In this document: in pieces, positions 28,701 through 62,691 of the stretch
How the letters are laid out: the number at the start of each line of letters is the position of its first letter
Position numbering within the stretch: the first letter of the stretch is position 1
Made by a program: the position numbers and the translations under genes
NCBI GenBank assembly: GCA_035548315.1
Contig: DASZTF010000044.1
Coordinates: 31,484 to 95,483 of the forward strand
DNA length: 64,000 nt
Origin: Minisyncoccota bacterium
GTDB lineage: Bacteria > Patescibacteriota > Minisyncoccia > Phycocordibacterales > Phycocordibacteraceae
Direction of reading: 5' to 3'
The notes under the pieces: model-generated
What the model was told of the DNA's origin: nothing
Database searches by the model: none
The model's input: the letters and a program-made list of their open reading frames with translations, nothing else

Positions 28701-29032
28701 AGTTCAATACTACCTATCAGACGTCGCTCGGCGGAGCGGAAGGATTCCAGTATTACTGCGTAGGCACGTGCACGCTGCCGTCGCCTATCTTTGCGTATAA
28801 CACTATGATCGCACTCACAAACGGCGGCACGCGCACTATGTCGTACCTTGCTCATGGCAGTAGCGTTGACTCAAATGGGCACACGACAGCTACGGGTTCG
28901 CCTACAGGCCACGACAACTACTTTGACATCACGGGAGCCGTCGGAGCGCTCTACCCAGCAAGTTTCAACGGGTGGACGCTTTCAAACAACTACAACATGG
29001 TAACGGGAGCCGCGTTCTCAAACAATCCATGA
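25763..29032 (+). CDS. Large secreted multidomain protein: signal peptide, PG_binding_1-like domain, poly-Gly linker, Ig-like domain, Fn3-like domain, ~300-aa glycine-rich (GGxGG) domain, second Fn3-like domain, C-terminal parallel beta-helix-like domain
   Basis: Signal peptide MKKWGLAFAVLSIVLTPHVASA. The PG-binding-like segment is ATGPDVTALQSWLMSQGYTISAGATGYFGPQTQTALSAYQ. The Ig-like segment TTAPTVSMTAPSDGSTVTG...VQFKLDGSSLG...HTLTAVARDAAGN follows. Two Fn3-like stretches are present (TWTTDE..SKVVYG...YHFAVVSADASGN and TWTTNENATSQVEYG...YHYRVRSSDASGN). The Gly-rich block begins TWTVPADWNSSNNTIEVIGGGAGAAG. The C-terminus carries repeated NYFD/NYV/YKYNF beta-helix-like rungs. Confidence 0.8.
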   Translation: MKKWGLAFAVLSIVLTPHVASATSIADLQAEVLRLVQLVQSLEAELAARGTTTTSSCPALTRDLTLNATGPDVTALQSWLMSQGYTISAGATGYFGPQTQTALSAYQSVHLIFPAVGYLGPLTRSSIGTVCTQTTTTTSTTTTISAGGGGGSRNNGGGGGGGGGGGGGGGGGGDTTAPTVSMTAPSDGSTVTGASVAVSATASDDTAVIGVQFKLDGSSLGSEDTSDPYVLSWDSTGVSDGSHTLTAVARDAAGNTTTATSVTVTVDNAGPVLSAIASTTDTTVATTTWTTDESSDSKVVYGTTSSYGTTVFNASRVTSHELVLSGLASNTTYHFAVVSADASGNTSTSSDKTFTTQAGSQTVVYITSGSTWTVPADWNSSNNTIEVIGGGAGAAGYASGNAPVGGGGGAYSKIVNTNLTPSATIGIHIGVGGVASTSGGDTYLCNATSNCGSLLGSAVIVGAQGGQRGVATGTPSGGQGGAASAGIGTTKYSGGNGGIPQSGTVISGVGGGGAAGPNGNGAAGGATTGSSNFTWGGSGGGGSGGGTAGANATSTAGVGANGGDNSNGVGHGVGAVNASAGGNGTGGTAGGGGGAGGNPGFSTDNAGSGGAGGAGTEWDATHGAGGGGGGSGACQVGATVGTGGNGGLYGGGGGGGCGTAGVGAQGVIVVTYGGSSDTTAPVISSISSGTPSSSGATITWTTNENATSQVEYGLTSSYTATTTLDSTLTTSHSVTLSGLSSGTTYHYRVRSSDASGNLATSSDQTFTTASGLDDGLSGAPSATIQHPTLLDSYTKKPDWNVAGVDYAVGIPSAVTLADWTTYSHSGCTVDSVTNHWIRCDNQTGLVFDGLDFTLHGGATLYLVNDTNTTVQNSKFGVPHSPNSYSIQMTGTSEDMTMKYNYFDTGGTASAIRAHCGTIVFEYNYVIHQQQQVIQVGANTGESCNAALTYKYNFIDDANIASGSHMNYQQLQLNTLTLDDEFNTTYQTSLGGAEGFQYYCVGTCTLPSPIFAYNTMIALTNGGTRTMSYLAHGSSVDSNGHTTATGSPTGHDNYFDITGAVGALYPASFNGWTLSNNYNMVTGAAFSNNP

Positions 29033-29054
29033 GAAGCGCTACGCGGATGGTAGT

Positions 29055-32000
29055 ATGAAAAGCATGATGCGCCGACGAAGTGTCATAGTTGCCATAACGA
29101 CGTTGGTCGGTCTTTTTTCACTGCAGCCCTTTCTGGCATCGGCGGCGACGTATACCCGAACGCTTGCAGTTGGCTCAAGTGGTTCCGACGTCGCTGCACT
29201 CCAGACATTCCTTGAGTCCAAGGGGTTTTACACATACCCTTCAATCACTGGCTATTTTGGAGCGGTGACTGAATCGGCACTCAAGGCATTCCAATCCTCG
29301 GTCGGGCTTGAGCCGGTGGGAGAGGTGGGGCCAAAAACGCAAGCAATTCTGAACGGCTCAACCTATACAGAGTCGACCGGAGCCCCATCAAACCTCCCCG
29401 CCTCTTTCACCCGCGACCTAGATGCAGGCACGTCAGGCAGCGACGTCACGGCGCTCCAGAGATGGCTCATTGCTCAGGGGTACACCATTCCTGCAGGAGC
29501 AACCGGATACTACGGTTCTCAAACCAAGGCGGCCGTGGCAGCATACCAGGCAGCGCACGGAATCACGCCTCCGGCGGGACGCTTCGGTCCTGCAACCCGC
29601 GCAAGCATATCGCTTGGCATGGCTGCGGGCACGACCGCGCCGCCCGACCAGATCGCTGTTGGACCAGACACCTACCTTGTTCCCGGAGTGCACCTGTCTG
29701 GAGGCACTCCCCGGCATCCTGAAACCCATACCGGAGGCACGAGCGACACCACGCCGCCAGTTCGCTCAGGCGGCGCTCCCTCAGGCACCCTTGCACTCAA
29801 CACCACAAGCACCACCATCTCACTTGATACCGACGAGTCTGCAACCTGCGCACATGCGACATCCCCGGGCACAGCGTACGGCTCCATGACCTCGTTCGAC
29901 ACCACCGGCGGCACCACGCACTCCTCCACGGTCTCGGGACTCACTAACGGCGGCAGTTATGTGTACTACGTCAAATGCGAAGATGCCGCCGGCAATATCA
30001 ACGCCGACGACTACACCATTTCATTCACCGTTGCCGCGGACACTACGTCGCCGTCGGTGACTCTCGATGCTCCCGCAAACAACGCAACTGTCTCAGGATC
30101 CGTCGCGCTGTCGGCTACTGCAAGCGATGACGTCTCTGTATCAGGCGTCCAGTTCAAACTCGACACCAACACCCTCATTGGGGCAGAGGACACGTCCTCT
30201 CCGTACACGGGCACGTGGGACTCGACGGGGGTCGCTGACGGGTCGCACACACTCGTGGCTGTGGCGCGCGACGGAAGCGGGAACTACGCTACGTCGAGCG
30301 TCGCTACCGTGACCGTCGACAACACCGCTCCTGTGCTCTCCTCCATCTCTTCTGGAACACCGGGCGCTTCAAGCGCGACGATCACGTGGAGTACGGATGA
30401 GGGTGCGTCGTCAACCGTGAACTACGGCCTCACGAGCAGCTATGGCACTGCCTCAACTAGCGACGCGCTTACAACCTCGCACTCGATCACTGTGACGGGA
30501 TTATCAGAAGGTACCACCTATCATTTCCAAGTGGCGTCTGCTGATTCGCAGGGTAATGTCGCAACCTCAAGCGACCAGACGTTCACTACCGGGTCAAGCT
30601 ACGCTCCTCTCGGTCTCACCTTTCTTCCATATAACGGTCTTGGTACGAACAGCGCCCTTGGCGTCACCAACAGCACTGCGCTCACGTACTCATTCTGGCT
30701 CATGGGAACATATAACAACGCGAACCCGACAACGATGGTGGGAACAGAAACATGGGGAGACCCCGGTACTTTCTGTGAGGTCACGGGCGGGACGGCTCCT
30801 GGCATCTGCAACTCTGTTGACACCACAAGTGGCCGGTTCCAGCTCAACTTCAATGACAGTACAGGTACCGTAAACGCAAGCAATGCCGTTAAGTTCATAG
30901 GGCAAGCGGGATCGAATGGTACGTGGCACCACTATCTCGTTAGCTTTGACACACATACGCAGAATTCAGCGCTTTACATAGATGGCGTCGACTCAGGAGT
31001 CCATGCGAACCCCATTCCGGCGGATTTGCTTCCGGATCTGAACAATTCTCACGGATTCCATTTAGGGGGTAAAACAACGGCCCAGCCTGCAGTTTCCCTC
31101 CAATACCAGGCTGAAATAGTTGCGGCTGAAACCAGCATTGTATGTACGGGCGCAGGCACGCCTACTACGATGAATGGTATTAGCGTAACCTGTAGCGCAG
31201 CCAACACCATACCGCCGGAAATACTCAGCAAGTTCATAGCCGATGGAAAGCCACTCGACCTCGGATCGTCATGTCAAAATCCGTTTGGCGGCCGTTCTTC
31301 CGAGGTTTGTGTGCGGGGCAGCAATACTTCTAATTCTGGTACGGGTGGCGCTCTCAGTCCACAGGTGTTCTCCACGGCTTCTTATGGTGGAGTGTATGCG
31401 GCTCCGTATGGGCCTGCAGGCATCCCCGCACATCAAGCAACTATGAAGTGGCTTCAGGCAAAAAACGGCGCCACGGTTACAAGCAATAGCATGACGACCA
31501 ACGCTGCATCGAACCCCATTTCAGTCGGCGATCTAATCGTGATTGTGGCGGGTATAAGCAATAGCTCCGGTAATACAAATTACGCTATGACCTGTCCGTC
31601 TGGGTTTAGCCAGATCGGTCCGGTGAACGACACCTTTGAGAGTGTTAACAGCGAGGCCTGCTACAAAATCCTTACCGGTGGTGATACGAGCGGTGCCTAT
31701 ACAATTACTTGGAATAGCGGCGGCGCTGCACGAACTCATGATTGGGTTATGGCCGATTACGGCAACGTCGCATCTGTGGATCAGACAGGATCTCTCTATA
31801 ACGGTGCTACCGTCACCACCTCGCATAAAACTGCTTCCGGTCTCACGACAACTTCGGCCAACGAGACAGTTGTTTCGGCCTGGGTGGATTGGAATGCAGC
31901 GGTCAATACGCCGTTCACTCCTCCTGGCACAGGGACGCTCCGCTACCGGCTGTCTGACGTCGGGTCTCCGTTGCAGATGATGCTCGTGGATGAATACTCA

Positions 32001-32090
32001 GTTGCAAACGGTAGCAATCCGCAGCGCACCATGACGACCGGGTCCGCAGTTACCTCAGCGGGCTTTACCCTCACGCTCGTCCCAAACTAA
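29055..32090 (+). CDS. Large secreted multidomain protein: signal peptide, two PG_binding_1-like domains, Ig-like, Fn3-like, LamG/ConA-like lectin domain, Cys-rich linker, unassigned ~250-aa C-terminal domain
   Basis: Signal peptide MKSMMRRRSVIVAITTLVGLFSLQPFLASA. Two PG-binding-like blocks are present (SGSDVAALQTFLESKGFY... and SGSDVTALQRWLIAQGYTIPAGATGYYGSQTKAAVAAYQ). Ig-like and Fn3-like segments parallel those of the upstream paralogue. The LamG-like signature is WHHYLVSFDTHTQNSALYIDGV. The protein ends ...GFTLTLVPN. Confidence 0.8.
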   Translation: MKSMMRRRSVIVAITTLVGLFSLQPFLASAATYTRTLAVGSSGSDVAALQTFLESKGFYTYPSITGYFGAVTESALKAFQSSVGLEPVGEVGPKTQAILNGSTYTESTGAPSNLPASFTRDLDAGTSGSDVTALQRWLIAQGYTIPAGATGYYGSQTKAAVAAYQAAHGITPPAGRFGPATRASISLGMAAGTTAPPDQIAVGPDTYLVPGVHLSGGTPRHPETHTGGTSDTTPPVRSGGAPSGTLALNTTSTTISLDTDESATCAHATSPGTAYGSMTSFDTTGGTTHSSTVSGLTNGGSYVYYVKCEDAAGNINADDYTISFTVAADTTSPSVTLDAPANNATVSGSVALSATASDDVSVSGVQFKLDTNTLIGAEDTSSPYTGTWDSTGVADGSHTLVAVARDGSGNYATSSVATVTVDNTAPVLSSISSGTPGASSATITWSTDEGASSTVNYGLTSSYGTASTSDALTTSHSITVTGLSEGTTYHFQVASADSQGNVATSSDQTFTTGSSYAPLGLTFLPYNGLGTNSALGVTNSTALTYSFWLMGTYNNANPTTMVGTETWGDPGTFCEVTGGTAPGICNSVDTTSGRFQLNFNDSTGTVNASNAVKFIGQAGSNGTWHHYLVSFDTHTQNSALYIDGVDSGVHANPIPADLLPDLNNSHGFHLGGKTTAQPAVSLQYQAEIVAAETSIVCTGAGTPTTMNGISVTCSAANTIPPEILSKFIADGKPLDLGSSCQNPFGGRSSEVCVRGSNTSNSGTGGALSPQVFSTASYGGVYAAPYGPAGIPAHQATMKWLQAKNGATVTSNSMTTNAASNPISVGDLIVIVAGISNSSGNTNYAMTCPSGFSQIGPVNDTFESVNSEACYKILTGGDTSGAYTITWNSGGAARTHDWVMADYGNVASVDQTGSLYNGATVTTSHKTASGLTTTSANETVVSAWVDWNAAVNTPFTPPGTGTLRYRLSDVGSPLQMMLVDEYSVANGSNPQRTMTTGSAVTSAGFTLTLVPN

Positions 32091-32162
32091 CTTGATCGCC
32101 TCGGGTTATCCCCACCCGGTAACTCGTCTTTTGAGAGACCCGGCAGGGTAGACTGTGGGCAT

Positions 32163-33800
32163 ATGCATATAAGACGCTTCGCATTCGGCATTCCCGTGCT
32201 TGTGCTCGGGCTTTTCTTTACTCTAAGTCCTGCAGCGCACGCGACGTATAAGCCAGCGGGTATTGAGTTCTTGCCGTTCATGGGCTTCGGTACTGGCAGC
32301 GCTACACCGCTTGGCGTCACCAACACCAAAACGCTCACGTATTCGTTCTGGCTCATGGGTACTGCTGACGAGGATGCTCATTACTCGCTTCAAGGCAACC
32401 AGTTCTTGAGCGATCCGAGTAGTGATTGCGAGGTTACGTCGGGACACCCATCCCCGGGGCTGTGTGGATCAGTTGATGATCCATATGGCCGTTTCCAAAT
32501 GAGCTTTAATGACTCGACCGGAACGGTGTCGGGAACAGACGACATCAAATTCCAAGCACAAGCAGGCAGCAATGCCGTGTGGCATCACTATCTCGTGAGC
32601 ATGGACAGTGCGAACCAGGTTGGTGCGCTCTATATCGACGGTTCGCTCTACACCGCGCGCGGGAATCCGCTCATATCTGCGAATGCCATTCCAGACCTCA
32701 ACAACGCCAATGGATTCCATATCCCGGGTTCTGGTCGGTTGATACAATACGAAGCAGACATTGTCGCAGCTGAAACAAGTGTGGTGTGTACGGGCACCGG
32801 TACGCCAGCATCGATGAACGGCATCGCCGTGACGTGTGCGGCACCGAACACCATCCCGCCCGAAATCGTTTCCAAATTCATCAATGGTTCTGGTAAACCG
32901 GTTGACCTCGGCACCGGCTGCGCCAATCCCTTTGGGGGACGGCAGTCAGAGGTATGTGTCGCTGGCAGCACGATCGGGAATACAGGGAGCGGACACTCGA
33001 TGGCAAGCGAGTTGTGGGGTCTAAGCGGTCTTGGTGGCGCGGGCACTCCGGATTACGGCGGGGTATTCACCGCGCCTTTTGGCCCGTGGGGCATTCCCGA
33101 TCATCAGGCCACGATGCGGTGGGTTCAAGAACAGAATCCTGCGGATGTAGTAACTTCAAATGGTTTCCCGGGAGCGTTAAACAAGGACTACATGACGACG
33201 TACGCCGCTTCTAATCCCATCGCGGTCGGAGATCTTATCGTGATTCTGGGGGGTATAAGTTCGAACTATACTATTAACGACGCACACATGATCTGCCCAA
33301 GTGGCTTCACGACCGTCGGACCGGTTGTGGATTCGGGCTATCCGGCGGGAGAAACAAACAGCATACTCTGCTATAAGTTTGCGACTTCCGCGGACGCGAG
33401 CGGCACGGGCGCATACAACATTTACTGGGATATCGGCAAGGCTGACCGCATGCACGACTGGCTCATGGCTGATTACACAAACGTAGCATCGGTCGATAAG
33501 AGTGGCAGCAACTACAATAGAAATGTTACCTCCCACCAGACTGCTTCTGGTCTCACCACTACATCAGGGAACGAGACGGTGGTGTCGGCGTGGGCGAACT
33601 GGAATGCGGCGGTCAATCAGTTCATCGAGCCGAGCACCGGTACACTCCGATTCCGTCTTCCTGACAATATTGCTTCCCCGATGCAGCTCATGCTGGTGGA
33701 TGAATATGGGGTCAGCAAAGGCAGCAATCCGCAGCGCACGATGACCACGGCATCTGCCGACTCGTCCGCAGGGTACACACTCACGCTCGTCCCGAACTAG
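32163..33800 (+). CDS. Secreted protein paralogous to the C-terminal half of the preceding gene (LamG-like + Cys-rich linker + same unassigned C-terminal domain)
   Basis: Signal peptide MHIRRFAFGIPVLVLGLFFTLSPAAHA. Collinear similarity to residues ~515-1011 of the upstream protein (TYSFWLMGT, WHHYLVS.D, ALYIDG, ADY.NVASVD, NETVVSAW, SNPQRTMTT, TLTLVPN). Confidence 0.8.
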   Translation: MHIRRFAFGIPVLVLGLFFTLSPAAHATYKPAGIEFLPFMGFGTGSATPLGVTNTKTLTYSFWLMGTADEDAHYSLQGNQFLSDPSSDCEVTSGHPSPGLCGSVDDPYGRFQMSFNDSTGTVSGTDDIKFQAQAGSNAVWHHYLVSMDSANQVGALYIDGSLYTARGNPLISANAIPDLNNANGFHIPGSGRLIQYEADIVAAETSVVCTGTGTPASMNGIAVTCAAPNTIPPEIVSKFINGSGKPVDLGTGCANPFGGRQSEVCVAGSTIGNTGSGHSMASELWGLSGLGGAGTPDYGGVFTAPFGPWGIPDHQATMRWVQEQNPADVVTSNGFPGALNKDYMTTYAASNPIAVGDLIVILGGISSNYTINDAHMICPSGFTTVGPVVDSGYPAGETNSILCYKFATSADASGTGAYNIYWDIGKADRMHDWLMADYTNVASVDKSGSNYNRNVTSHQTASGLTTTSGNETVVSAWANWNAAVNQFIEPSTGTLRFRLPDNIASPMQLMLVDEYGVSKGSNPQRTMTTASADSSAGYTLTLVPN

Positions 33801-35156: not shown

Positions 35157-38100
35157 ATGCAGAAAAAGGCCATGCCGGTGAAGACGTTCGGTGCATTTCG
35201 AGCCCCGCTCGTCGAATTCCCGGACTTCATCGCCCACCAGCGTGAATCGTTCGAGTGGCTCCTCAAAGAGGGATTCGCCGAACTCTTTAAGGAATTTTCT
35301 CCGATCCCGGACTATTCGGGTAAGAAGTTCGAACTTCGCATCGAAGACTTCGAAGTCGGTGAGCCTAAGTATGACGAGGAATACGCGCGCGAGAATATGC
35401 GCACGTACGAGGCACCGGTGAAGGTCTCGGTGAAACTCATTAATAAGACCCTCGGTACGGAAAAGACCCAGGACATCTTCCTCGCGGATCTCCCGATCAT
35501 GACGCCGCACGGCAGCTTCATCGTCTCAGGCGTGGAGCGCGCTATCGTGCCGCAGCTCGCGCGCTCGTTCGGTGCGTTCTTCACTTCCGAACTTCTGCGC
35601 GGCAAGCTCTATTATGGTGCGAAGATCATCCCGGCGCGCGGCGTGTGGATCGAGATCGACTCTGAAGCAGACGGCGCAATTTATGTGAAGATCGACCGCA
35701 AGCGCAAGTTCCCGGTCACCGACCTCCTCACGGTCTTCGGCGCTGGCGTCCGCGAAGAGGTCCTCAAGAAATTCATCGGTAACGACGCGGCAGTCGCTGC
35801 ACTCCAGACGACGCTTGCGCACGACACGGCGAAGTCCGTGGATGACGCCTACGTGGAGATCCACCGCCGCATGCGCGACGGCGACCTCGCAACTTCTGAC
35901 AACGCCCGCGATTACGTGAAGTCACTCTTCACGCCTGATCGCTATGACCTCTCGAAGGTCGGTCGCTACCGCTTGAACCAGCGCTTCGGCGAAGCCCTCA
36001 CCCCGAAGGCGCTCGAAGCACGCTCGCTCACGCTCGACGACCTCGTCCGCATTGTCGGTGAGATCGCGAAGCTCAACGTCGACCCGAATGCGAAGCTCGA
36101 CGACATCGACCACCTCGGTTTCCGCCGCGTCCGCTTTGTGGGTGAACTCCTCCAGGCACGCATGCGCGTGGGTATGAGCCGTATGAAGCGCAACATCCAG
36201 GACCGCATGTCCACGATCGAATCGGAGACTTCGCTCCCGATGGCATTCGTGAACCCGCGCCCGTTCCAGGCGTCGGTCCGCGAGTTCTTCACGGCCAACC
36301 AGCTCTCCCAGTTCATGGACCAGCAGAATATCCTCGCCGAACTCGAGCACCAACGTACATTCTCCGCGCTCGGTCCGGGAGGTCTCACACGCGAACGCGC
36401 TGGCTTTGAAGTGCGCGACGTGCACCCGAGCCACTACGGTCGCCTCTGTCCTATTCACACACCGGAAGGACAGAACATCGGCCTCATTCTGCGCATGGCC
36501 GTCCACGCTCGCACCAACGACTTTGGTGTGATCGAGACCCCGTACGCAAAGGTGAAGAAGGGTCAGGTCACCGATGAAATCATTTACCTCAACGCACTCG
36601 AAGAAGAAGAGCAGGTAATAGCGCACGCGGCGACCAAGCTCGACGAGAAGGGCCGCATCGCACTCGAGACCATCGAGGCACGCAAGGGCGGCGAGCCAGT
36701 CCTCGTCTCACGCGACGACGTGACCCTCGTCGACGTCTCGACCTACCAGATGTTCTCGATTGCGACCAACATGATTCCGTTCGTGGATCACGACGACAGT
36801 AACCGCGCGCTCATGGGTAGCAACATGCAGAAACAGGCGACGCCGGTCCTCATCCCAGAGGCGCCGCTCGTGGCGACCGGTATCGAAGAGCACGCAGCGC
36901 GCAACACGGGCCGCCTCATCATCGCTCACGAAGCGGGTGATGTGACCTATGCGGACGCGCGCAAGATCGTCGTCACAAACAAGGACGGCAAGAAGAAGGA
37001 GTACAAGCTGCAAGGCCTTACGCAGACCAACCAGAACTCGGCCTTCTACCAGCGTCCGATCGTGCGCCCCGGGGACAAGGTCAAGAAGGGAGAAGTGCTC
37101 GCCGATGCATCGTCCTCTGATCGCGGTCAGCTCGCGCTCGGCCAGAACGTGCGCGTAGCATTCATGAGCTGGAGCGGCGCGAACTACGAAGACGCTATCA
37201 TCGTCTCCGAGCGCCTCGTGGAGGACAGCAAGTTCACCACCCTCCATATCGAAGACTTCGAGTGCCTCGTGCGCGACACGAAGCTCGGTGCAGAAGTCAC
37301 GACACACGACATCCCGAACGTGGGTGAGATGCGCCTCAAGAACCTCGACGAGGAAGGCGTCGTGCGCATTGGTGCAGAGGTGCGACCGGGCGACATCCTC
37401 GTGGGTAAGGTCACGCCGAAGGGTGAGACTCAGCTCACACCAGAAGAGCGCCTCCTCCGCAGTATCTTCGGCGACAAGGCCAAGGACGTGAAGGACACCT
37501 CGCTCCGCATGGAAGGCGGTAAGCGCGGTCGTGTCATTGGCGTGCGCGTGTTCAGCCGCGAGAAGGGCGACCAGCTCGAGAGCGGTATCATCAAGAAGAT
37601 CGTCGTGACGGTGGCGCAGGTGCGTAACGTATCGGTGGGTGACAAGCTTGCCGGTCGCCACGGTAACAAGGGCGTGATCTCGCGCGTGCTTCCGGTGGAA
37701 GACATGCCGTACGACAAGGACGGTAACCCAGTCGACCTCATCCTCACGCCGCTTGGCGTGCCGAGCCGCATGAACCTCGGTCAGATTCTTGAGATGCACC
37801 TCGGTCTTGCTGCCAATACGCTCGGCTACCAGGCAGTTGTCCCGCCGTTCGTGGGTGCAACGGCTGATGAAATCGCCGACGAGCTCGAAGCTGCAGGCTT
37901 CTCGCGCTCGGGCAAGATGAAACTCTACGACGGTCGCACCGGAGAAACGTTTGGTCAGGACATCGCCGTGGGCTACATGTACGTCTTGAAGCTCCACCAC
38001 ATGGTGGAAGACAAGATCCACATGCGCTCCATTGGTCCCTACAGCCTGATCACCCAGCAGCCGCTCGGTGGTAAAGCACAGAACGGTGGTCAGCGCTTCG

Positions 38101-38336
38101 GAGAAATGGAAGTGTGGGCGCTCCTCGGCTACGGTTCTGCATACACGCTGCGCGAGATGCTCACTATTAAGTCAGACGACATCCAGGGCCGTTCTGCGGC
38201 ATTCGATGCCATCGTGAAATCGGAGCCGATAAGCCACGCGGGTACGCCGGCGTCGTTCTCCGTACTTACTAATCAGATCAGCGGTCTCGCGCTCGACGTC
38301 GACGTCGTCGAAGTGCCGCCGACCGATCTCGCCTAA
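35157..38336 (+). CDS. rpoB: DNA-directed RNA polymerase subunit beta (compact, 1059 aa)
   Basis: Conserved beta blocks: GSFIVSGVERAIVPQL, rifampicin-cluster region FMDQQN...LSALGPGGL, RLCPIHTPEGQNIGL, KLAGRHGNKGVIS, and the QRFGEMEVWAL C-terminal block. Confidence 0.95.
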   Translation: MQKKAMPVKTFGAFRAPLVEFPDFIAHQRESFEWLLKEGFAELFKEFSPIPDYSGKKFELRIEDFEVGEPKYDEEYARENMRTYEAPVKVSVKLINKTLGTEKTQDIFLADLPIMTPHGSFIVSGVERAIVPQLARSFGAFFTSELLRGKLYYGAKIIPARGVWIEIDSEADGAIYVKIDRKRKFPVTDLLTVFGAGVREEVLKKFIGNDAAVAALQTTLAHDTAKSVDDAYVEIHRRMRDGDLATSDNARDYVKSLFTPDRYDLSKVGRYRLNQRFGEALTPKALEARSLTLDDLVRIVGEIAKLNVDPNAKLDDIDHLGFRRVRFVGELLQARMRVGMSRMKRNIQDRMSTIESETSLPMAFVNPRPFQASVREFFTANQLSQFMDQQNILAELEHQRTFSALGPGGLTRERAGFEVRDVHPSHYGRLCPIHTPEGQNIGLILRMAVHARTNDFGVIETPYAKVKKGQVTDEIIYLNALEEEEQVIAHAATKLDEKGRIALETIEARKGGEPVLVSRDDVTLVDVSTYQMFSIATNMIPFVDHDDSNRALMGSNMQKQATPVLIPEAPLVATGIEEHAARNTGRLIIAHEAGDVTYADARKIVVTNKDGKKKEYKLQGLTQTNQNSAFYQRPIVRPGDKVKKGEVLADASSSDRGQLALGQNVRVAFMSWSGANYEDAIIVSERLVEDSKFTTLHIEDFECLVRDTKLGAEVTTHDIPNVGEMRLKNLDEEGVVRIGAEVRPGDILVGKVTPKGETQLTPEERLLRSIFGDKAKDVKDTSLRMEGGKRGRVIGVRVFSREKGDQLESGIIKKIVVTVAQVRNVSVGDKLAGRHGNKGVISRVLPVEDMPYDKDGNPVDLILTPLGVPSRMNLGQILEMHLGLAANTLGYQAVVPPFVGATADEIADELEAAGFSRSGKMKLYDGRTGETFGQDIAVGYMYVLKLHHMVEDKIHMRSIGPYSLITQQPLGGKAQNGGQRFGEMEVWALLGYGSAYTLREMLTIKSDDIQGRSAAFDAIVKSEPISHAGTPASFSVLTNQISGLALDVDVVEVPPTDLA

Positions 38337-38348
38337 CGCTTCACTTCT

Positions 38349-41300
38349 ATGGCACACACACCACGCAATCAGGGCAGGAAAGAAGACTGGGGCGCGATCC
38401 GTCTGTCGGTCGCATCGCCAGAACGCATCCTCCAGTGGAGTCACGGCGAAGTGACGAAGCCGGAGACGATCAACTACCGCACCCAGCGCTCGGAGAAGCA
38501 CGGTCTCTTCGATGAAAAGATCTTTGGCCCTGAAAAGGACTACGAGTGTTACTGCGGTAAGTACAAGGGCATCCGCTACAAGGGCATTGTTTGTGATAAG
38601 TGTGGCGTGGAAATCACACGCTCAATTGTGCGCCGCGAGCGCATGGGCCACATCGAGCTCGTGACGCCGGTCGCGCACATCTGGTACCTCCGCTCGGTCC
38701 CGAGCCGCATGGCGCTCCTCCTCGGTCTCTCGGCATCCGACCTCGAGAAAGTCGTCTACTTCGCGGGCTACATCGTCACCAAGGTGAACGAGGAGACCAA
38801 GAAGAAGCTCCTTTCTGAACTCGAGAGCGAGTACAAGAGCAAGTACAAGTCGACCGAAAAGGACGCAGACAAGGAAGCGCTCAAGGAACGCATGACGCTC
38901 GCGAAGGCCGAGATCGAATCGGTCGTCGTGGGCCGCGTATTCGATGAAATGGAGTACCACCACTTCTCCGTGAAGTACGGTACGCTCTTTGAAGCGCGCA
39001 TCGGCGCAGAAGCGATCTACGACATCTTCCGCGGTATCAACCTCAAGGAGCTCAAGGAGACGCTCGAGGCCCGCTACCAGAAGGCAGGTGCTGCAGAACG
39101 CGAGAAGCTCGCGAAGCGCATCAGCCTCGCGGCAGGCATGATCGCAGCGAACACCCGCCCCGAGTGGATGTTCCTCACGCGCATCCCGGTGATCCCGCCG
39201 GCGCTCCGTCCGATGGTGGCGCTCGAGGGTGGCCGCCACGCGACGAGCGACGTGAACGACCTCTACCGCCGCGTGATCAACCGCAACAACCGTCTCAAGA
39301 AGCTCCTCGACATCCACGCACCGGAAGTGATTCTCCGTAACGAAAAGCGCATCCTCCAGGAAGCAGTGGACGCACTCCTCGACAACTCCATCCGTAAGGG
39401 TGGTGCATCGGGTGGCGCGCTCACGCCGAGCCAGCGCCGTCCATTGAAGTCACTCGCCGACTACCTCAAGGGTAAGCAAGGGTACTTCCGCCAGAACCTC
39501 TTGGGTAAGCGCGTGGACTACTCGGGCCGCTCCGTGATCGTCGTGGGTCCTGATCTCGAGCTCGACCAGTGCGGTCTGCCGAAGCACATGGCGCTCGAGC
39601 TCTTCCGCCCATTCGTGATCGGCGGGCTCTTGAAGCGCGAGCTCGCGTTCAACATCCGCGGCGCAGGGCGCCTCATCGAAGACGGCGTGCCGGAAGTCTG
39701 GGAAATCCTCGAAGAAGTGATCCAGGGCAAGTACGTGCTCCTCAACCGCGCACCGACGCTCCACCGCCAGGGTATCCAGGCATTCCGCCCGCGCCTCATC
39801 GAAGGTGATGCGATCCAGCTGCACCCGCTCGTCTGTCACGCATTCAACGCTGACTTCGACGGTGACCAGATGGCCGTCCACGTGCCGCTTTCTGAAGAAG
39901 CACAGTGGGAAGCACGCGAAGTGATGAGCGCGAACAAGAACATCCTCAAGCCGGGTAACGGCGAAATGACGGTGCTTGCAGCTAAGCCGCAGGACATCAT
40001 TCTCGGTGTGTACTGGCTCACGAAGCTCGCACCGGGCGCAAAGGGCGAGGGCATGTACTTCCAGTCGCCGAATGCCGCGATCCTCGCGTACGAGTACGGC
40101 GCAGTCGACCTGCGTGCGAAAGTGCACGTGGCGCCGACGCCGGAGAAGGCGAAATACGCCGACTTTACGGAAGGTACCTTTGAGACCTCGGTCGGGCGTC
40201 TCCTCTTCAACACCGTGCTCCCGAGCGAGTATCCGTTCGTGAACGACGCAATCACCAAGAAGGTGCTTGCCCGCATCGTGAACGACTGCATCGCGCGCTA
40301 CGGTCTCGACCGCATCCCGGATATCGTGAACAAGGTGAAGCGTTTCGGGTTCGAGTATGCGACCAAGTCGGGCGTGACCTTCGCGATGAGCGAAGTGCTC
40401 GTGCCGGAAGCCAAGCAGGACATCATCAAAGCGACCGAGAAAAAGGTGGAAGGCATCGAGGATAACTTCCGCGATGGCCTCCTCTCGGAAGACGAAAAGC
40501 GTCGCATGGTGATCGAGGCATGGCAGGGCGCGAAGGGTGAGATCGAAAAGATCGTGGCCGAGACGATGAACCCGATGGGTTCCATGTCGGACATGGTGGT
40601 CTCCGGCGCCCGCGGTTCTATGGGCCAGGTGACGCAGATGGTGGGTATCAAGGGCCTCATCCAGAACACCGCTGGCGAGACGATCGAGGTGCCTATTACC
40701 TCGAGCATGGCAGAAGGGCTCAACCCGATTGAGTACTTCATGTCCACGCACGGTGCGCGTAAGGGTCTCACCGACACCGCGCTTGGTACGGCACGCGCAG
40801 GATACCTGACGCGCCGCCTCTTCGACGTCGCGCAGGACTCGATCATTACCGAGAAGGATTGCGGCACTAAGCGCGGTGTGCAGATCAGCCGCGTATCCGC
40901 ATCCGGTATTCAGGTAGACTTCGCCGACGCGGTCCGTGGTCGCGTGCTTGCGGAAGACGCCGGTAGCTTCAAGAAGAATCACTACCTCACCGCAGAGGAC
41001 GCCCGCGTACTCGCAAACGACAACTCGATCCCGTCCGTACTCATGCGCTCCCCGATGAGCTGTGAGACGCGCTTCGGCATCTGCGCAGCTTGCTACGGCA
41101 TGGACCTCACCACACAGGAACTCGTAGACTTGGGCGAGGCAGTCGGTACCGTGGCCGCACAGGCTATCGGTGAACCGGGCACGCAGCTCACGATGCGCAC
41201 CTTCCACTCGGGCGGCGTGGCATCGGTCGGCGGCGACATCACGCAGGGTCTCCCGCGCGTGGAAGAAGTGTTCGAGAAGCGCACGCCGAAGAATCCTGCG

Positions 41301-42047
41301 ATCGTGAGTAAGACCGATGGTATGGTCGTCGAGATCCGCGAAGCGGGTCGCGAGAAGGTCATCGTCGTCGTACCGGAAGTGGGGCAGGGCAAGAAGGACG
41401 GCTCGGCAAGCGAGTACGTCGCTATCTATCCTCGCCAGGCACTCGTGAAGGCGGGCGATAAGGTCACGAAGGGCCAGCTGCTTACCGATGGATCGGTGGA
41501 CCTCGACGAGCTCTTCGAGTACGCTGGGCGCGCGGTCGTGCAGGAGTACATCATCACGGAAACGGCGAAGATCTACGAGCTCCAGGGCGCATCGGTGTCG
41601 CGCAAGCACATCGAGGTGATCGTGAAGCAGATGTTCAACCGCGTGAAGATCACCGAGATCGGTGAGACCGAGTATTCGGTCGGCGACGTGATCGAAGACT
41701 GGGAGTACGCAGCAGCACTTGCGGAAGCGAAGAAGGAAGGCAAGGAAGCGCCGAAGGCAAAGGAAATCGTCCTTGGTATCAAGGAGTCCGCACTCAGTCG
41801 CCGCTCGTTCCTCTCGGCAGCGTCGTTCGAACAGACCACGAAGATCCTCATCAACGCAGCCCTCAAGGGTTCCGTGGATACGCTCCGTGGTCTGAAAGAA
41901 AATGTGATCCTCGGTCGCCTCATCCCGGCGGGTACTGGATTCGCTCAGTCGAAGAAGCACGCTTCAATCAAGAAGCTGCAGGCTGAGCGCCCAGCGCCAG
42001 TCATGGAAGAGCGCAGTTTCACCGCCAAGTTCCCGGCAAAGTCCTAA
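38349..42047 (+). CDS. rpoC: DNA-directed RNA polymerase subunit beta'
   Basis: Zn-binding [20 protein letters not shown], catalytic [12 protein letters not shown], trigger loop and bridge helix regions. 1232 aa. Confidence 0.95.
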
Positions 42048-42066: not shown

Positions 42067-42107
42067 CACAGCGCCGCCCCGTGAGGGGCGGCGCTGTTGT
42101 ATACTTT
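42067..42107 (+). terminator. Rho-independent terminator after rpoC
   Basis: cagcgccgcccc-gtga-ggggcggcgctg perfect 12-bp stem followed by ttgtatacttt. Confidence 0.8.
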
Positions 42108-42111
42108 CCGG

Positions 42112-42414
42112 ATGAACCACGAACCCCGCTCGCAAGCGTCGCTCGAAAACCTCACCGAAATGGTGGTGGATTTAACAGGTGCAGTGCAGGAAGGATTTAC
42201 TCGAGTCGAGAAAAGTATTGAAGTACTTCACGAAGGCCAGGAGAATCTGAAAGAACGTGTGGGTGTCCTCGAGGGCACCGTAGGGAAATTGGTAGTCAAA
42301 GTTGATGAAATGTCCGATGCGCTGGATGGCTTGGCCCGCGCAGTGGATAAAGACGCCGTTACACTCGTAAATCACGAAGGCCGCATCGCCCGCCTCGAGA
42401 AAGCCGCAGCATAA
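42112..42414 (+). CDS. Hypothetical coiled-coil protein
   Basis: ATG at 42112; the track's TTG at 42097 lies inside the terminator stem. Heptad-like LENLTEMVVDL...LKERVGVLEGTVGKLVVKVDEMSDALDGLARAV. Confidence 0.4.
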   Translation: MNHEPRSQASLENLTEMVVDLTGAVQEGFTRVEKSIEVLHEGQENLKERVGVLEGTVGKLVVKVDEMSDALDGLARAVDKDAVTLVNHEGRIARLEKAAA

Positions 42415-42646: not shown

Positions 42647-42731
42647 ATGAACGCCTCCTGCTTGGTCAAAGTACTTTATAAACATAATGATTCTTTGTCA
42701 AGTATCAGAAACAAGCGTAAAATTGGGAGAA

Positions 42732-44411
42732 ATGGCGGGGGATACGGTACAGCAGGTGAAGGAGAAACTGTCGATTGTCGACGTGATTTCGCCGTATGTG
42801 AAGCTCGCTCGGGCGGGGAAGTACTGGAAGGGGCTCTCGCCCTTTAATAAGGAAAAGACGCCGAGTTTCTATGTGAACATTGAGCGCCAGAGCTACTACT
42901 GCTTCTCAAGTAATCAGGGCGGCGATATGTTCACATTCATCCAGGCGATGGAGGGTGTCGACTTCAAAGGCGCACTGAAAATTCTCGCGGAGAAAGCGGG
43001 TGTGGAAATTGAATATTCTGGCCCGGGGAAAGGGAAGGAGCATAAAGAAAAAGAAGAGCGCGAGCGCGAAGCGCTCGCGCGGGCTGAGCAATTCTTCGTC
43101 CGTAATCTCACGGAAAATTCACCGGCGTACGCCTACGCTCTTAAACGCGGGCTTTCACCTGCTACTATCGCGAGCTGGAATTTGGGTGTCGCACCTGACA
43201 CCTGGCGCGGACTGCTCGATGAGCTTACCGCTGCAGGATTTACCAATCCCGAACTCATCGCAGCCGGCCTTATCAAAGAAGCCGACGGGAAACCCGGCAC
43301 CTACTATGATCGATTCCGTAATCGCTTGATGTTCCCGATCAAGGACGCGGCGGGCCGCACGGTGGCATTTACCGGCCGTGCGCTCGACCCGGATGATCAG
43401 GCAAAGTACCTCAACTCACCAGAAACGGACCTCTACAAGAAATCCAAGATTCTCTTTGCGATGGATCGGGCAAAGGACGCCATCCGCCAGCGGCAGTTTG
43501 CGCTCCTCATGGAAGGGCAGATGGATGTGATTCACGCGCATCAGGCAGGATTCACGAACACTGTGGCGCTTTCGGGCACTGCGCTCACCGATGAGCACCT
43601 TTCGCTTATCAAACGCTACTCCGAGAACTTGATGCTGTGTCTTGATGCCGATCGTGCCGGGCTCGCCGCGACACAGAAGCACGCGCTCGCGGCGCTCCGC
43701 CACGGTTTGCGAGTAAAGGCAGTGCGGCTTCCAAAAGGCAAAGACCCGGCAGATCTCATCTCGGAAGACCCAAAGGAATTCACCAAACGTGTCGCAGACG
43801 CGGAACCGGTCATCGAGTTTTTCCTCGCAGTGCTCGCGGAAGCGGAGCCGGACCCGCACCGGCTCGTGCTCCATAGCGAGAAAATCGTGCTGCCGCTGCT
43901 TGCCGCTGTTAAGAGTCCGATGGAGCGGGATCACTTTGTGGGGGTGATCGCCCGTGCGACGGGGCTTACGCCGGAGTCGATCCGCGCTGGGCTTGCTGCG
44001 GTACCCAAAGACGCCATGGGGGCAGAATCACCGAGCAGGGCGCCTGTGCCGGCTGCTAAAGACGAGCCCGTCACCGACCTCATGCGCCTCACCGCAATTG
44101 TAGAGGTGTACCCGGCGAGCCACCTTGCCGAACGAGTAAAAAGTGAGTATACTCGCATCACGGGTGCGACGATGCCAGAGGAGGCAAGTCCCGAACGTGT
44201 CTCATTTGAGACCGGGATACTCTACGGAGAAGCTCCTCTTGAGCGCGCCGCCGATGATGTACTCAAACGATTTGAACGGGCGACTCTGACCCGGAGGTAC
44301 GAAGAGGCACTGACCGAGCTCCGCCGCGCAGAACGCGCAGGAGACCAGGACGCCATTTCTGCCGCAGAGGCTTCGTGCGACAAACTTATGAAGACGATCG
44401 CGACTCTCTGA
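42732..44411 (+). CDS. dnaG: DNA primase with degenerate zinc-binding domain
   Basis: ZBD-like N-terminus in which the canonical CPFHxEKTPSF...YHCFGCG reads SPFNKEKTPSF...YYCFSSN (3 of 4 Zn ligands replaced). Intact TOPRIM (LMEGQMDVI, LCLDADRAG). dnaG-rpoD synteny. Confidence 0.9.
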   Translation: MAGDTVQQVKEKLSIVDVISPYVKLARAGKYWKGLSPFNKEKTPSFYVNIERQSYYCFSSNQGGDMFTFIQAMEGVDFKGALKILAEKAGVEIEYSGPGKGKEHKEKEEREREALARAEQFFVRNLTENSPAYAYALKRGLSPATIASWNLGVAPDTWRGLLDELTAAGFTNPELIAAGLIKEADGKPGTYYDRFRNRLMFPIKDAAGRTVAFTGRALDPDDQAKYLNSPETDLYKKSKILFAMDRAKDAIRQRQFALLMEGQMDVIHAHQAGFTNTVALSGTALTDEHLSLIKRYSENLMLCLDADRAGLAATQKHALAALRHGLRVKAVRLPKGKDPADLISEDPKEFTKRVADAEPVIEFFLAVLAEAEPDPHRLVLHSEKIVLPLLAAVKSPMERDHFVGVIARATGLTPESIRAGLAAVPKDAMGAESPSRAPVPAAKDEPVTDLMRLTAIVEVYPASHLAERVKSEYTRITGATMPEEASPERVSFETGILYGEAPLERAADDVLKRFERATLTRRYEEALTELRRAERAGDQDAISAAEASCDKLMKTIATL

Positions 44412-44441: not shown

Positions 44442-45674
<1,233 letters not shown>

Positions 45675-48283: not shown

Positions 48284-49546
48284 CTAGTGCATTACCCGCG
48301 CCGCCACTTCTCCACGCGGGATTTCTTCCTCCGAACTCGTTGCGAGCGTTTTGAGTCGCACCGTGCCGGTTTCCGCTTCGTTCTTACCAAATGCGGCAAA
48401 GTAGGGAATGCCGCGCTTCACGGCTTCCTTAACTTGGTCGCCGAGCGACTTTTCGGCCAGGTTCATGAATACGCGGACGCCGCTTTTACGCAGTTCGTCG
48501 GCAAACGACCGCGCTGCCGGAAGGTCTTCAGGGCTCGGTGTGCCGACGTAGATGTCAGCGCTTGCGGCGATATGTACCGCATAGCCGTGCGTGGTGAGGA
48601 AGTCCATGAGCGTGACATCCCCGAAGGCGAATCCGACCGCAGGGATGGGATCACCACCAAAGAGTGTGACGAGACCATCATAGCGACCACCGCCAAAGAG
48701 CGAGCGTGCGTTCTCGGGATTGGTGTCGAATATTTCAAACACGGTGCCGGTGTAGTAGTCGAAGCCGCGCACGACATCGAGATCGAGGACGGCGTTACCG
48801 ACACTGCGCGCCTTGAGCGTTTCGATGAATGATTCGAGGCGCGCTTTTTCCGCCGCGACGCCCGCATCCGTACCCGCCTCAATGACGGCGAGAGGATCTG
48901 CCGTGAATTCTTTGCGTGCCGATTCAAATTCTTCCTTGCTCATCTTTGATTTGCGGTCGATGAGCTGCCAGTAATGGCGGGCGTGTTCACCTTCAGCAAG
49001 ACCGGCAACTTCCGATGCGAGGCGCAGCAGCTTGCGCGAGTTTACGTGGATAGAAAAGTCTGCTTCCGATGCGCCAAATGCGATGAGAAGGTCGTGCGCG
49101 AGCGTGACCATTTCAAGATCGGCTTCGCCCTCTGGAAGACCCACGAGGTCGATGTCGGTCTGGTAGAACTCGCGGAGGCGGCCCTTTTGCATGCGTTCGT
49201 AGCGGAAACGGTTACCAATTGAGAACCAACGGAGGGGATAGGTGAGCTCGCGGCGCTTAGCGGCCACCATGCGCGCAAGCGATGGTGTCATCTCGGGACG
49301 CAGCGTGACGCGGCGATCGCCGCGGTCGGTGAAGGTATAGGTCTGCTCGTTCACAATTTCCTCGTTCCCCTTGCTCTCGTAGAGTTCCGCGCGCTCGAGT
49401 GGGGAAGCGTTGTACTCCTCATAGCCGTAGGAGGCGAGGAGTTCACGGGTGCGGTTAAAGAGGGCCTGCATCTTCCCCCAATCGGCGGGGTAGAAATCGC
49501 GCACGCCCTTATAAGGCTCGGTGGAAAGCGGCTGCCGGTCGGTCAT
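48284..49546 (-). CDS. hisS: Histidine--tRNA ligase
   Basis: Class IIa motifs (RDFYPADW, YERMQKGRLREFYQ, GGGRYDGL) and a C-terminal anticodon-binding domain. Confidence 0.9.
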   Translation of the reverse strand: MTDRQPLSTEPYKGVRDFYPADWGKMQALFNRTRELLASYGYEEYNASPLERAELYESKGNEEIVNEQTYTFTDRGDRRVTLRPEMTPSLARMVAAKRRELTYPLRWFSIGNRFRYERMQKGRLREFYQTDIDLVGLPEGEADLEMVTLAHDLLIAFGASEADFSIHVNSRKLLRLASEVAGLAEGEHARHYWQLIDRKSKMSKEEFESARKEFTADPLAVIEAGTDAGVAAEKARLESFIETLKARSVGNAVLDLDVVRGFDYYTGTVFEIFDTNPENARSLFGGGRYDGLVTLFGGDPIPAVGFAFGDVTLMDFLTTHGYAVHIAASADIYVGTPSPEDLPAARSFADELRKSGVRVFMNLAEKSLGDQVKEAVKRGIPYFAAFGKNEAETGTVRLKTLATSSEEEIPRGEVAARVMH

Positions 49547-58419: not shown

Positions 58420-59787
58420 ATGGACGTGCTCACGTTCTCGCGTATTCAGTTTGGCGACACTGCCGCCTTCCACATCCTCTGGCCCCTTATGTCGATCGGG
58501 CTCGCGCTCTACCTCGCCATCATGGAAGGGATGTGGCTCTACACTAAGGACGAGTCCTACTATCGTCAGCTGCGCTTCTGGATAAAGATTTTCGTCCTCA
58601 CGTTCGCCATTGGAGTGGCGAGCGGGTTCCCGCTTTCGTTCCAGTTCGGTACCAATTGGGCAGCATTCTCCAATGCGGCGGGGAGCTTCTTCGGTAACAT
58701 TCTTGGCTTCGAGACCACGATCGCATTCACGCTTGAGACCGCGTCGCTCGGCATACTCCTTTTCGGCTGGAAGCGCGTACCCCGCGCGGTGCACTTTATT
58801 GCGAATCTCTTCGTCCTCATCGGCGCGTCGCTCTCAGGGTTCTGGATCGTCGCAGCTAATTCTTGGATGCAGGTACCGCACGGCGTCGCGTTCGTGGAAG
58901 GGAAGTTTGTCGTCACCGATTATCTGGCTGCGATCTTTAACCCCGATACGCTCGTGTCGTTCGCCCATATGTGGCTCGCGTGCATCGTGGCGACGATGTT
59001 TCTGGTCGCGGGTATCTCCGCCGCAGTGTTGCTTACGAAAAACGCCGCAGATGCCACGCGCGCGTTCTTTCTCCATTCGCTCCGGTACGCGCTTATGCTC
59101 ATTATCATCACGACGCCGGTCCAAATGGTCGTGGGCGATATGTTTGGCGGTATCCTCGAGGCGAATCAGCCTGCAAAACTCGCCGCATACGAACTGCACT
59201 GGAATACGAATCCGCCTGGTACGGGCGCGTCGCTCAATCTGTTCGCGTGGCCGCGAGCGGATGGGGGAGGGAACGTATTCCAGATCTCCGTCCCGAATCT
59301 CCTTTCGTATATTGTCGTGCACACGCCGGATGGCGAGGTCAAGGGACTCAATGATTTCCCCCCGCTTGATCGCCCGAGCGTCGTGGATGCGATTATCACG
59401 TTCCTGTCCTTCCGCGTCATGGTGGGACTCGGCGTGGTGATGTTCTTCATCGCGGTGTGGGGAATCGTCTTGTGGCGGCGCGGCGTACTTACCCTCCCGG
59501 CAATCCTTTCGCGCCGCTGGTTCTTGCGCGTGCTCGTGGCCGCTATCCCCGCAGGATTTATCGCCACCGAAGCAGGGTGGATGGTGCGCGAGATCGGCCG
59601 GCAGCCCTGGGTGGTCTACGGCATGATGCGCACGACCGACGCACTCTCCTCGAACCTCGCACTGCCGCAGGTGGGCACGAGTCTCATTGGACTTTCGGTG
59701 ATTTACGCTGCGCTCGCGGTCGCCTTTGTCGTCTTTGTGGTGCGTATCGTGCGACGAGGTCCTGATCTCACCACTCCCATACCATGA
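58420..59787 (+). CDS. cydA: Cytochrome bd ubiquinol oxidase subunit I
   Basis: Typical CydA N-terminus (FHILWPLMSIGLALYLAIMEG), Q-loop region, 455 aa. Confidence 0.9.
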   Translation: MDVLTFSRIQFGDTAAFHILWPLMSIGLALYLAIMEGMWLYTKDESYYRQLRFWIKIFVLTFAIGVASGFPLSFQFGTNWAAFSNAAGSFFGNILGFETTIAFTLETASLGILLFGWKRVPRAVHFIANLFVLIGASLSGFWIVAANSWMQVPHGVAFVEGKFVVTDYLAAIFNPDTLVSFAHMWLACIVATMFLVAGISAAVLLTKNAADATRAFFLHSLRYALMLIIITTPVQMVVGDMFGGILEANQPAKLAAYELHWNTNPPGTGASLNLFAWPRADGGGNVFQISVPNLLSYIVVHTPDGEVKGLNDFPPLDRPSVVDAIITFLSFRVMVGLGVVMFFIAVWGIVLWRRGVLTLPAILSRRWFLRVLVAAIPAGFIATEAGWMVREIGRQPWVVYGMMRTTDALSSNLALPQVGTSLIGLSVIYAALAVAFVVFVVRIVRRGPDLTTPIP

Positions 59788-62476: not shown

Positions 62477-62639
62477 GTGAGCAGTATAGCGTAGCTGTGG
62501 AGAGTGGTTTGCGTTTATGTGTTGGCGTGCTATACCGTAAGGGTATGACGAATCGTGTGTATCGCATGCATAAGCGTTGGAACTTCCGCACCGCGGCGGG
62601 TTCTTCGTGCATGTGGAATTAGGCCTATCTATCCACACG

Positions 62640-62675
62640 AAACGAAAACCCGCCCCCTCAGGCGGGTTTTCGTTT
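62640..62675. promoter_or_regulatory. Perfect 15-bp hairpin (aaacgaaaacccgcc-ccctca-ggcgggttttcgttt) in a divergent intergenic region
   Basis: Direct reading. Both flanks are A/T-containing, so it could terminate a transcript from either strand. Confidence 0.5.
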
Positions 62676-62691
62676 ATCACACACCATACCT

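Follow-up and report, generated by a model that had tools for sequence, protein, structure and literature searches.

Can a bacterial replicative primase work without the zinc of its zinc-binding domain (ZBD)? The question is raised by the dnaG gene in a 64-kb stretch of a Minisyncoccota bacterium genome (contig DASZTF010000044.1, positions 31,484 to 95,483), which we refer to as the window. A preliminary description of the window had claimed that the ZBD of the encoded primase has lost three of its four zinc ligands, in an otherwise well conserved chromosomal enzyme. We find that the three ligands are indeed replaced and that the replacement is shared by whole lineages, and we consider it probable that this is a working replicative primase in which the ZBD adopts its fold and functions without zinc, with polar side chains in place of the metal.

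By every sequence test, apart from the ligand set of the CHC2 zinc ribbon, the dnaG product belongs to the DnaG family. No stop interrupts its reading frame, the dnaG equivalog model TIGR01391 of NCBIfam matches residues 4-407 with 397.2 bits against a cut-off of 283.6, and the homologues are 550-570 amino acids long and 60-98 % identical; the nearest carry the names Paceibacterota, Parcubacteria, Minisyncoccia and Kaiserbacteria, which places the genome in the Patescibacteria (CPR). These homologues begin at the position of 42732, and a GGGAG at 42725-42729 stands just 5' of this ATG. The alternative start, an ATG further upstream at 42687, would lengthen the protein by 15 residues and leave the ZBD unaffected. 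The domain order is that of canonical DnaG, namely ZBD, RNA polymerase domain (RPD) and C-terminal domain. The preliminary description had called the TOPRIM core and the residues around the zinc site conserved, and this is borne out: the polymerase domain can be aligned well with five DnaG catalytic domains of known structure, including 5GUJ, 4E2K, 1EQN and 1DD9, with the TOPRIM acidic residues and the basic motifs for nucleoside triphosphate and template all kept (EGQMDV, LDADRAG, KDPAD, KYLNSPET and DRFRNRLMFPI). The match to DnaB_bind PF10410 is sub-threshold (19.8 bits against a cut-off of 20.6, E 9.8e-4) and covers residues 386-415, upstream of the divergent C-terminal region.

The zinc-ligand positions can be assigned without ambiguity. 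Residues 4-94 align ungapped in phmmer to the solved ZBDs 1D0Q (B. stearothermophilus, E 5e-23) and 2AU3 (A. aeolicus), a 91-residue alignment with 46 % identity that includes the family flanks PF.xEKTPSF and GGDxF.F. In this alignment 'GLCPFHGEKTPSF...FHCFGCGAGG' of 1D0Q stands over 'GLSPFNKEKTPSF...YYCFSSNQGG' of the window DnaG, so that the Cys-His-Cys-Cys ligands of 1D0Q and 2AU3 correspond to S36, N39, C57 and S60 and one ligand in four is left. A fifth, coupled change lies between ligands 3 and 4, where the glycine of the knuckle has become S59. This substitution had been listed before without being stressed; it is found in 98 % of 51 ligand-free sequences compared to 1 % of 172 canonical sequences. 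Re-alignment cannot supply other ligands because C57 is the only cysteine of the domain, and the ZBD contains no other cysteine or histidine able to act as one. Thus the CHC2 zinc ribbon is present as a domain, judged by the PF01807 match and by a predicted fold like that of 1D0Q, while the Cys-x2-His...Cys-x2-Cys ligand set of metal-binding PF01807 members is missing from it.

The same replacement is found in nearly all close relatives. The pattern S-[N/T]-C-[S/T] is present in 119 of the 120 best homologues, which are 60-98 % identical and come from NCBI, ENA, JGI and Logan assemblies, so the substitutions are no sequencing error, the possibility that the preliminary description had wished to see checked in relatives. 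The sole canonical sequence among these 120 is P0012, and the closest sequences from other assemblies (P0001, 98 % identical, and P0002, 87 %) share the pattern. Across 120 clade members S36, C57 and S59 are invariant, position 39 is Asn in 95 % and Thr in the rest, and position 60 is Ser or Thr. Nowhere in DnaG is conservation higher than in the knuckles and central strands of its ZBD. Mean column entropy is 0.51 in the ZBD compared to 0.65 in TOPRIM, 0.80 in the N-terminal subdomain of the RPD and 1.88 in the C-terminal region, the most variable part. Because the entropy of the ZBD is the lowest of all domains, we conclude from these alignments that the ZBD is under strong purifying selection and is not decaying.

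Structure prediction, which had also been proposed as a check, returned a normal zinc-ribbon fold. AlphaFold2 gave one good ZBD model with a shallow alignment (predicted local distance difference test, pLDDT, 77.5) and five concordant models (pLDDT 71.6-80.6) with 119 sequences, nearly all of them ligand-free. The predicted topology of two helices, five strands and two helices is that of 1D0Q, and Foldseek places the model closest to 1d0q_A (template modelling score, TM, 0.82; root-mean-square deviation 1.2 Å) and then to 2au3 (TM 0.75). After these two comes the N-terminal domain of human Twinkle, which lacks zinc.

The synteny of dnaG with rpoD, and with it the identification as the chromosomal primase, also stands. 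The order rpoB-rpoC-dnaG-rpoD is common to about 45 related loci found by tblastn, and in 73 of 80 related loci dnaG is followed by rpoD. A tblastn search of the 64-kb window with seven DnaGs or ZBDs found no second DnaG and no stand-alone ZBD (best E 0.046), and neither the window nor the 10-kb flanks showed a dnaG paralogue.

To what extent is the ligand-free domain a peculiarity of one genome? Our survey concentrated on sequences resembling the window DnaG. Among the 147 full-length representatives of 50 %-identity clusters nearest the query, drawn from 1.84 billion proteins, about 30 are ligand-free and about 115 others carry the canonical CHCC set; the ligand-free representatives have S at the first position, then N, T, S, A or K, then C or D, then S or T. 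Likewise 20 of 80 loci retrieved from GTDB species-representative genomes are ligand-free, giving a share of about 20-25 % among the sampled Paceibacteria-like DnaGs. The preliminary description had been confined to one genome. Beyond it, the trait recurs across Patescibacteria and the Saccharibacteria have lost the last cysteine too. The Saccharibacteria-type domain reads S-x-D-S (Ser, Ser/Thr, Asp, Ser), has none of the four ligands and carries Asp at the third position, and this holds without exception for the 120 nearest homologues of one such protein and the 120 of another (240 in total). Assembly names are a poor guide to taxonomy here, many TPA records of 'uncultured Candidatus Saccharibacteria' grouping with Kaiserbacteria-like genomes; for this reason our Saccharibacteria group rests on the DnaG tree, in which the S-x-D-S clade, with its records named Saccharimonadales or Saccharibacteria, has a bootstrap of 100, and on the records named Saccharimonadales. 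The canonical ligand set occurs in loci named Nomura-, Yanofsky-, Zambryski-, Taylor-, Terry-, Vogel- and Peregrinibacteria and in some named Kaiserbacteria, as well as in the four loci with a non-Patescibacteria label and a parsed or readable motif (L040, L042, L060 and L073). Within this sampling the ligand-free ZBD is no one-genome peculiarity but a trait that recurs in Patescibacteria and extends over whole lineages.

The conserved gene order allowed us to use RpoB+RpoC as a proxy for the species tree (2231 columns, neighbour-joining, 100 bootstraps, 42 taxa), and a second neighbour-joining tree was built from DnaG minus its ZBD (56 taxa). On the RpoB+RpoC tree the ligand-free window and L002 are sister to the canonical L014, L021, L008, L007, L012 and L015, with a bootstrap of 100 for the union. 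Canonical L024 (Kaiserbacteria RIFCSPLOWO2_01_FULL_45_25) is nested in the ligand-free L017, L009 and L005, with a bootstrap of 100 both for the four together and for L009, L005 and L024, and ligand-free L027 sits among canonical genomes. The DnaG tree gives the same local groups. Both the ZBD of L024 (L024 10001-10285) and its polymerase domain are closest to ligand-free relatives, and a cluster representative, P0136, is likewise a canonical CHCC sequence among ligand-free relatives. Because the two trees agree locally and both domains of L024 are nearest to ligand-free relatives, we take it that dnaG is inherited vertically and that its ligand state is switched in place. Fitch parsimony requires at least four state changes on the 42 taxa and at least six on the 56. 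An earlier neighbour-joining tree of 173 sequences, built on the polymerase domain only, was star-like and offered no test of monophyly, and the two trees above replaced it; in that set the nearest-neighbour enrichment for ligand state (0.45 against a background of 0.21) is only suggestive.

Codon usage at the replaced positions bears on how the states arose. The serine at ligand 1 is encoded by TCN in the Paceibacteria-type genes and by AGY in all eight Saccharibacteria-type genes, which suggests separate origins. The ligand 1 codons on either side of canonical L024 (TGC) are AGT in L009 and TCG in L005, a split that favours parallel loss around L024. The codon of Ser59 is near-universally TCN, two steps from Gly, and this common codon would fit one origin or a module exchange. 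Outside the ligand columns the ZBD of L004 (1130-1405) is 80 % identical to window positions 42741-43016 while the polymerase domains are only 42 % identical, and pairs at this divergence typically reach about 65 % in the ZBD. The segment encoding the ZBD may thus have been exchanged between lineages. It is conceivable that the metal site of the primase is an evolutionary toggle in Patescibacteria, with several independent losses and either regain of the site (L024 and P0136) or exchange of a ligand-free module (L004), but we regard this as doubtful on balance. If it were true, the fold would be pre-organised without metal and zinc dispensable for primase function, and the window clade against L014 and L015, or L005 and L009 against L024, would be natural experiments in which what zinc does for the structure could be told apart from the DNA sensing proposed for it.

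The change of site is accompanied by further changes in the same domain. In the non-ligand columns of the ZBD, pairs of mixed state are 4-10 points less similar than pairs of the same state when RPD divergence is matched. The columns that track the state (59, 62, 73, 54, 34 and 63) are all in the ZBD, and no comparable column was found elsewhere in DnaG save gap-rich, sparsely populated columns of the linker and C-terminal region. These substitutions look like a local re-optimisation of the domain. The third acidic motif of TOPRIM (KDPAD, 43737-43748) reads DPAD where model primases have DPD(D/E/T). We considered whether it is coupled to the ZBD state and rejected this, the motif being present in 170 of 223 sequences and general in Paceibacteria DnaGs of both states.

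Both Cys4 zinc sites of RpoC (Zn1 and Zn2, each CCCC) are kept in all 42 genomes, whatever the state of their DnaG. Because these sites are intact, we conclude that the loss of zinc ligands is, among the genes compared, specific to the primase, and a general avoidance of zinc was rejected on the same grounds.

We propose that the ZBD retains its five-stranded zinc-ribbon fold, no longer binds a structural zinc and keeps its role in template handling and in regulating the polymerase domain. The small polar side chains of Ser36, Asn39, Ser60 and Ser59, or Ser, Ser/Thr, Asp and Ser in Saccharibacteria, would cross-link the two knuckles by hydrogen bonds, possibly joined by a water or a hard cation at the former zinc site. 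For the window DnaG, then, we infer the absence of zinc, the stability of the fold and the retention of priming, as well as any change in initiation-site preference and the selective cause. Several points weigh against this proposal. A purely hydrogen-bonded domain does not account for the invariance of the sole remaining Cys57 in Paceibacteria. Changes of Cys to Ser in the zinc motif of the T7 primase reportedly abolish both zinc binding and template-directed synthesis, and a ligand-free domain is for that reason not trivially functional. Because AlphaFold2 models no metals and was trained on 1D0Q, its models indicate compatibility with the fold and are no proof of stability without zinc. The second-primase search covers 64 kb of the genome, which leaves room for another primase elsewhere. 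Finally, the trees are neighbour-joining only, and parallel loss, regain and exchange of a ZBD module would all fit them.

The invariance of Cys57, seen in all 120 Paceibacteria-type sequences, could instead mean that a metal is still bound through this residue and oxygen ligands (Ser, Asn, Asp or water), either in an unusual zinc site or as a harder cation such as Mg2+, Ca2+ or Na+. The strong conservation of the residues that replace the ligands fits such a site, as does the invariant Asp at position 57 amid Ser and Thr in Saccharibacteria, a plausible place for a hard cation. However, Ser, Thr and Asn make poor ligands for zinc, a single thiolate cannot hold a structural zinc, the ZBD contains no further conserved Cys or His, and position 39 varies over lineages (N, T, S, A, K, V, G) to a degree that a ligand would not tolerate; we consider residual metal unlikely. 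A different possibility is that the ZBD keeps its fold and its protein-level roles (docking to the polymerase, regulation in trans, coupling to the helicase) and has lost sequence-specific recognition of the template, priming being relaxed or otherwise directed. In other primases the residues that immediately precede ligand 3 have been implicated in the choice of trinucleotide (PMC8928506; PMC5737085), and in the window DnaG they read SYY compared to IFH in 1D0Q; the other ZBD substitutions that go along with the change of state point the same way. Yet canonical Paceibacteria also vary at this place (YY or YH), which means that the difference is not linked to the loss of zinc, and the knuckles and central strands, being the best-conserved part of the protein, fit continued contact with nucleic acid. 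Outright loss of recognition seems to us improbable. That template recognition or initiation specificity may be altered in the window primase, as the preliminary description had suggested, is a reasonable hypothesis all the same.

Could the ZBD be a relic while another enzyme primes? Metazoan Twinkle lost its ZBD ligands together with its primase activity (PMC4417153; PMC5737085), its N-terminal domain is the structural match that follows 1D0Q and 2AU3, and our evidence is limited to 64 kb of the genome. Unlike in Twinkle, the catalytic motifs of the polymerase domain are all intact, the ZBD is the most conserved domain and not the least, and dnaG is syntenic and single-copy within the window. 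We consider a decaying relic very unlikely. The probability that the replacement is a sequencing, assembly or frameshift artefact is close to nil: the same residues, written in varied codons, recur in independent assemblies of several sources at 60-98 % identity, the frame of dnaG is open, and we counted nothing in favour of an artefact. A functional, zinc-free ZBD in a working primase is the explanation that we retain.

Loss of ligands from zinc ribbons is already known, from ribosomal proteins and from Twinkle. For the ligand-free ZBD of a bacterial DnaG we found no earlier description: full-text literature searches returned neither such a domain nor any paper on DnaG in Patescibacteria, and reviews call the Cys3His set of DnaG highly conserved and its role unresolved (PMC6163395). 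Compared to the canonical domain (1D0Q, 2AU3, PF01807), the window DnaG differs in having Ser, Asn and Ser for three ligands together with the Gly to Ser change, and the Saccharibacteria in having all four ligands replaced. The N-terminal domain of metazoan Twinkle resembles it as a ZBD of the DnaG/gp4 type that lacks the zinc ligands and is kept as a folded domain (PMC4417153; PMC5737085). Twinkle differs in that it also lost the catalytic metal-binding residues of its polymerase domain, a combination that we do not find in the window DnaG, where the core is intact and the ZBD best conserved. A further comparison is with the zinc-free 'C-minus' ribosomal proteins (L31, L33, L36, S14 and S18), which show recurrent, lineage-specific loss of ligands with function kept (Makarova, Ponomarev and Koonin 2001, 'Two C or not two C', as cited in PMC10450194). 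As in these proteins, the ligand cysteines of the window DnaG are replaced while fold-defining residues and conservation persist. The C-minus proteins usually come as paralogue pairs whose zinc-free copy is induced on zinc limitation (for example PMC5912738), whereas the window primase is a single-copy essential enzyme that has been switched outright.

In some lineages the C-terminal zinc ribbons of type IA topoisomerases have also lost cysteines, the DNA-binding module persisting without metal ligands; this is another protein with another domain role, and we claim homology for the fold class only. Taken together, these comparisons would place an essential enzyme of replication among the zinc-ribbon proteins that have shed their metal. 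Large and abundant lineages, including the Saccharibacteria, have as their only visible replicative primase an enzyme without the Cys3His site and with a tightly conserved domain, which implies that the ZBD of DnaG can work without zinc. Zinc-free and zinc-site sister enzymes are 65-70 % identical in the catalytic domain and would make it possible to test how the metal affects stability, redox sensitivity and the choice of trinucleotide. Annotation and drug-target reasoning that presume a universal zinc site in DnaG are affected as well. Since RpoC retains both of its zinc sites, a loss confined to the primase points to a selective reason particular to this enzyme in cysteine-poor organisms with reduced genomes. 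Zinc economy, or the shedding of a thiolate site sensitive to oxidation, may be named as causes in the way of speculation.

The coordinates of dnaG, its domains and motifs, and the other genes referred to are given in Table 1.

Table 1. Features of the window; knuckle ligands are numbered from the N-terminus
Feature	Position	Strand	Description
dnaG coding sequence, chromosomal DnaG-type primase	42732..44411	+	559 amino acids plus stop; TIGR01391, Pfam, homologues
'Zinc-binding' domain (ZBD) at the N-terminus, residues 1-95	42732..43016	+	zinc-ribbon fold without complete metal site; Zn_ribbon_DnaG PF01807 E 2.2e-28 (residues 4-95)
First knuckle S36-P-F-N39, in place of C-P-F-H (ligands 1, 2)	42837..42848	+	codons S36 TCG 42837-42839, N39 AAT 42846-42848
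Second knuckle C57-F-S59-S60, in place of C-F-G-C	42900..42911	+	codons TGC TTC TCA AGT; C57 42900-42902, S60 42909-42911; ligand 3 kept, ligand 4 Cys to Ser
N-terminal subdomain of RPD, residues 122-248	43095..43475	+	DNAG_N PF08275 E 4.4e-37; DRFRNRLMFPI, KYLNSPET
TOPRIM catalytic subdomain, residues 257-345	43500..43766	+	Toprim_2 PF13155 E 9.6e-22; EGQMDV, LDADRAG, KDPAD
Divergent C-terminal region, residues 431-559	44022..44408	+	presumed helicase-binding domain, from its position in DnaG
rpoB	35157-38336	+	upstream of dnaG
rpoC	38349-42047	+	upstream of dnaG; both Cys4 zinc sites kept
rpoD, primary sigma factor	44442..45674	+	directly downstream of dnaG; Sigma70 r1.1, r1.2, r2, r3, r4
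dnaE	12152-15316		Cys-poor product
hisS	48284-49546		Cys-poor product
Cytochrome bd oxidase subunits I and II, next to an FAD-linked oxidase	58420-60794 and 60791-62680	+ and -	Pfam E 1e-145 (I) and 3e-69 (II)

Some features of the window and of the related sequences are recorded here in their own right. The window has a guanine plus cytosine content of 56-61 %, and its proteins are poor in cysteine, with 2 in 1059 residues of RpoB, 3 in 1054 of DnaE and none in 410 of RpoD or 420 of HisRS. Paceibacteria are usually described as being without respiration. The window encodes both subunits of a cytochrome bd oxidase, adjoined by an FAD-linked oxidase, and this may have a bearing on exposure to oxygen and on why a thiolate site prone to oxidation was lost.

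Between rpoC and dnaG lies a gap of 680 bp with an open reading frame of 105 amino acids (42097-42414, + strand), coiled-coil-like and without a Pfam match; because about 40 bp separate the end of rpoC from dnaG in L007, a canonical sister locus, we read it as a lineage-specific insertion or small gene. On the other side of dnaG, RpoD begins with a long Lys/Ala-rich, histone-H1-like tail before region 1.1 (44442-44650, + strand). Three consecutive large open reading frames at 25763-33800 (+ strand; 1089, 1011 and 545 amino acids) have signal-peptide-like N-termini and probably encode surface or secreted proteins. Outside the window, in P0132 (1358 amino acids) and P0211 (1240 amino acids), a canonical DnaG module (CHCC, 'FKCFGC') is one of three matched stretches, which suggests fusions of primase with other domains.

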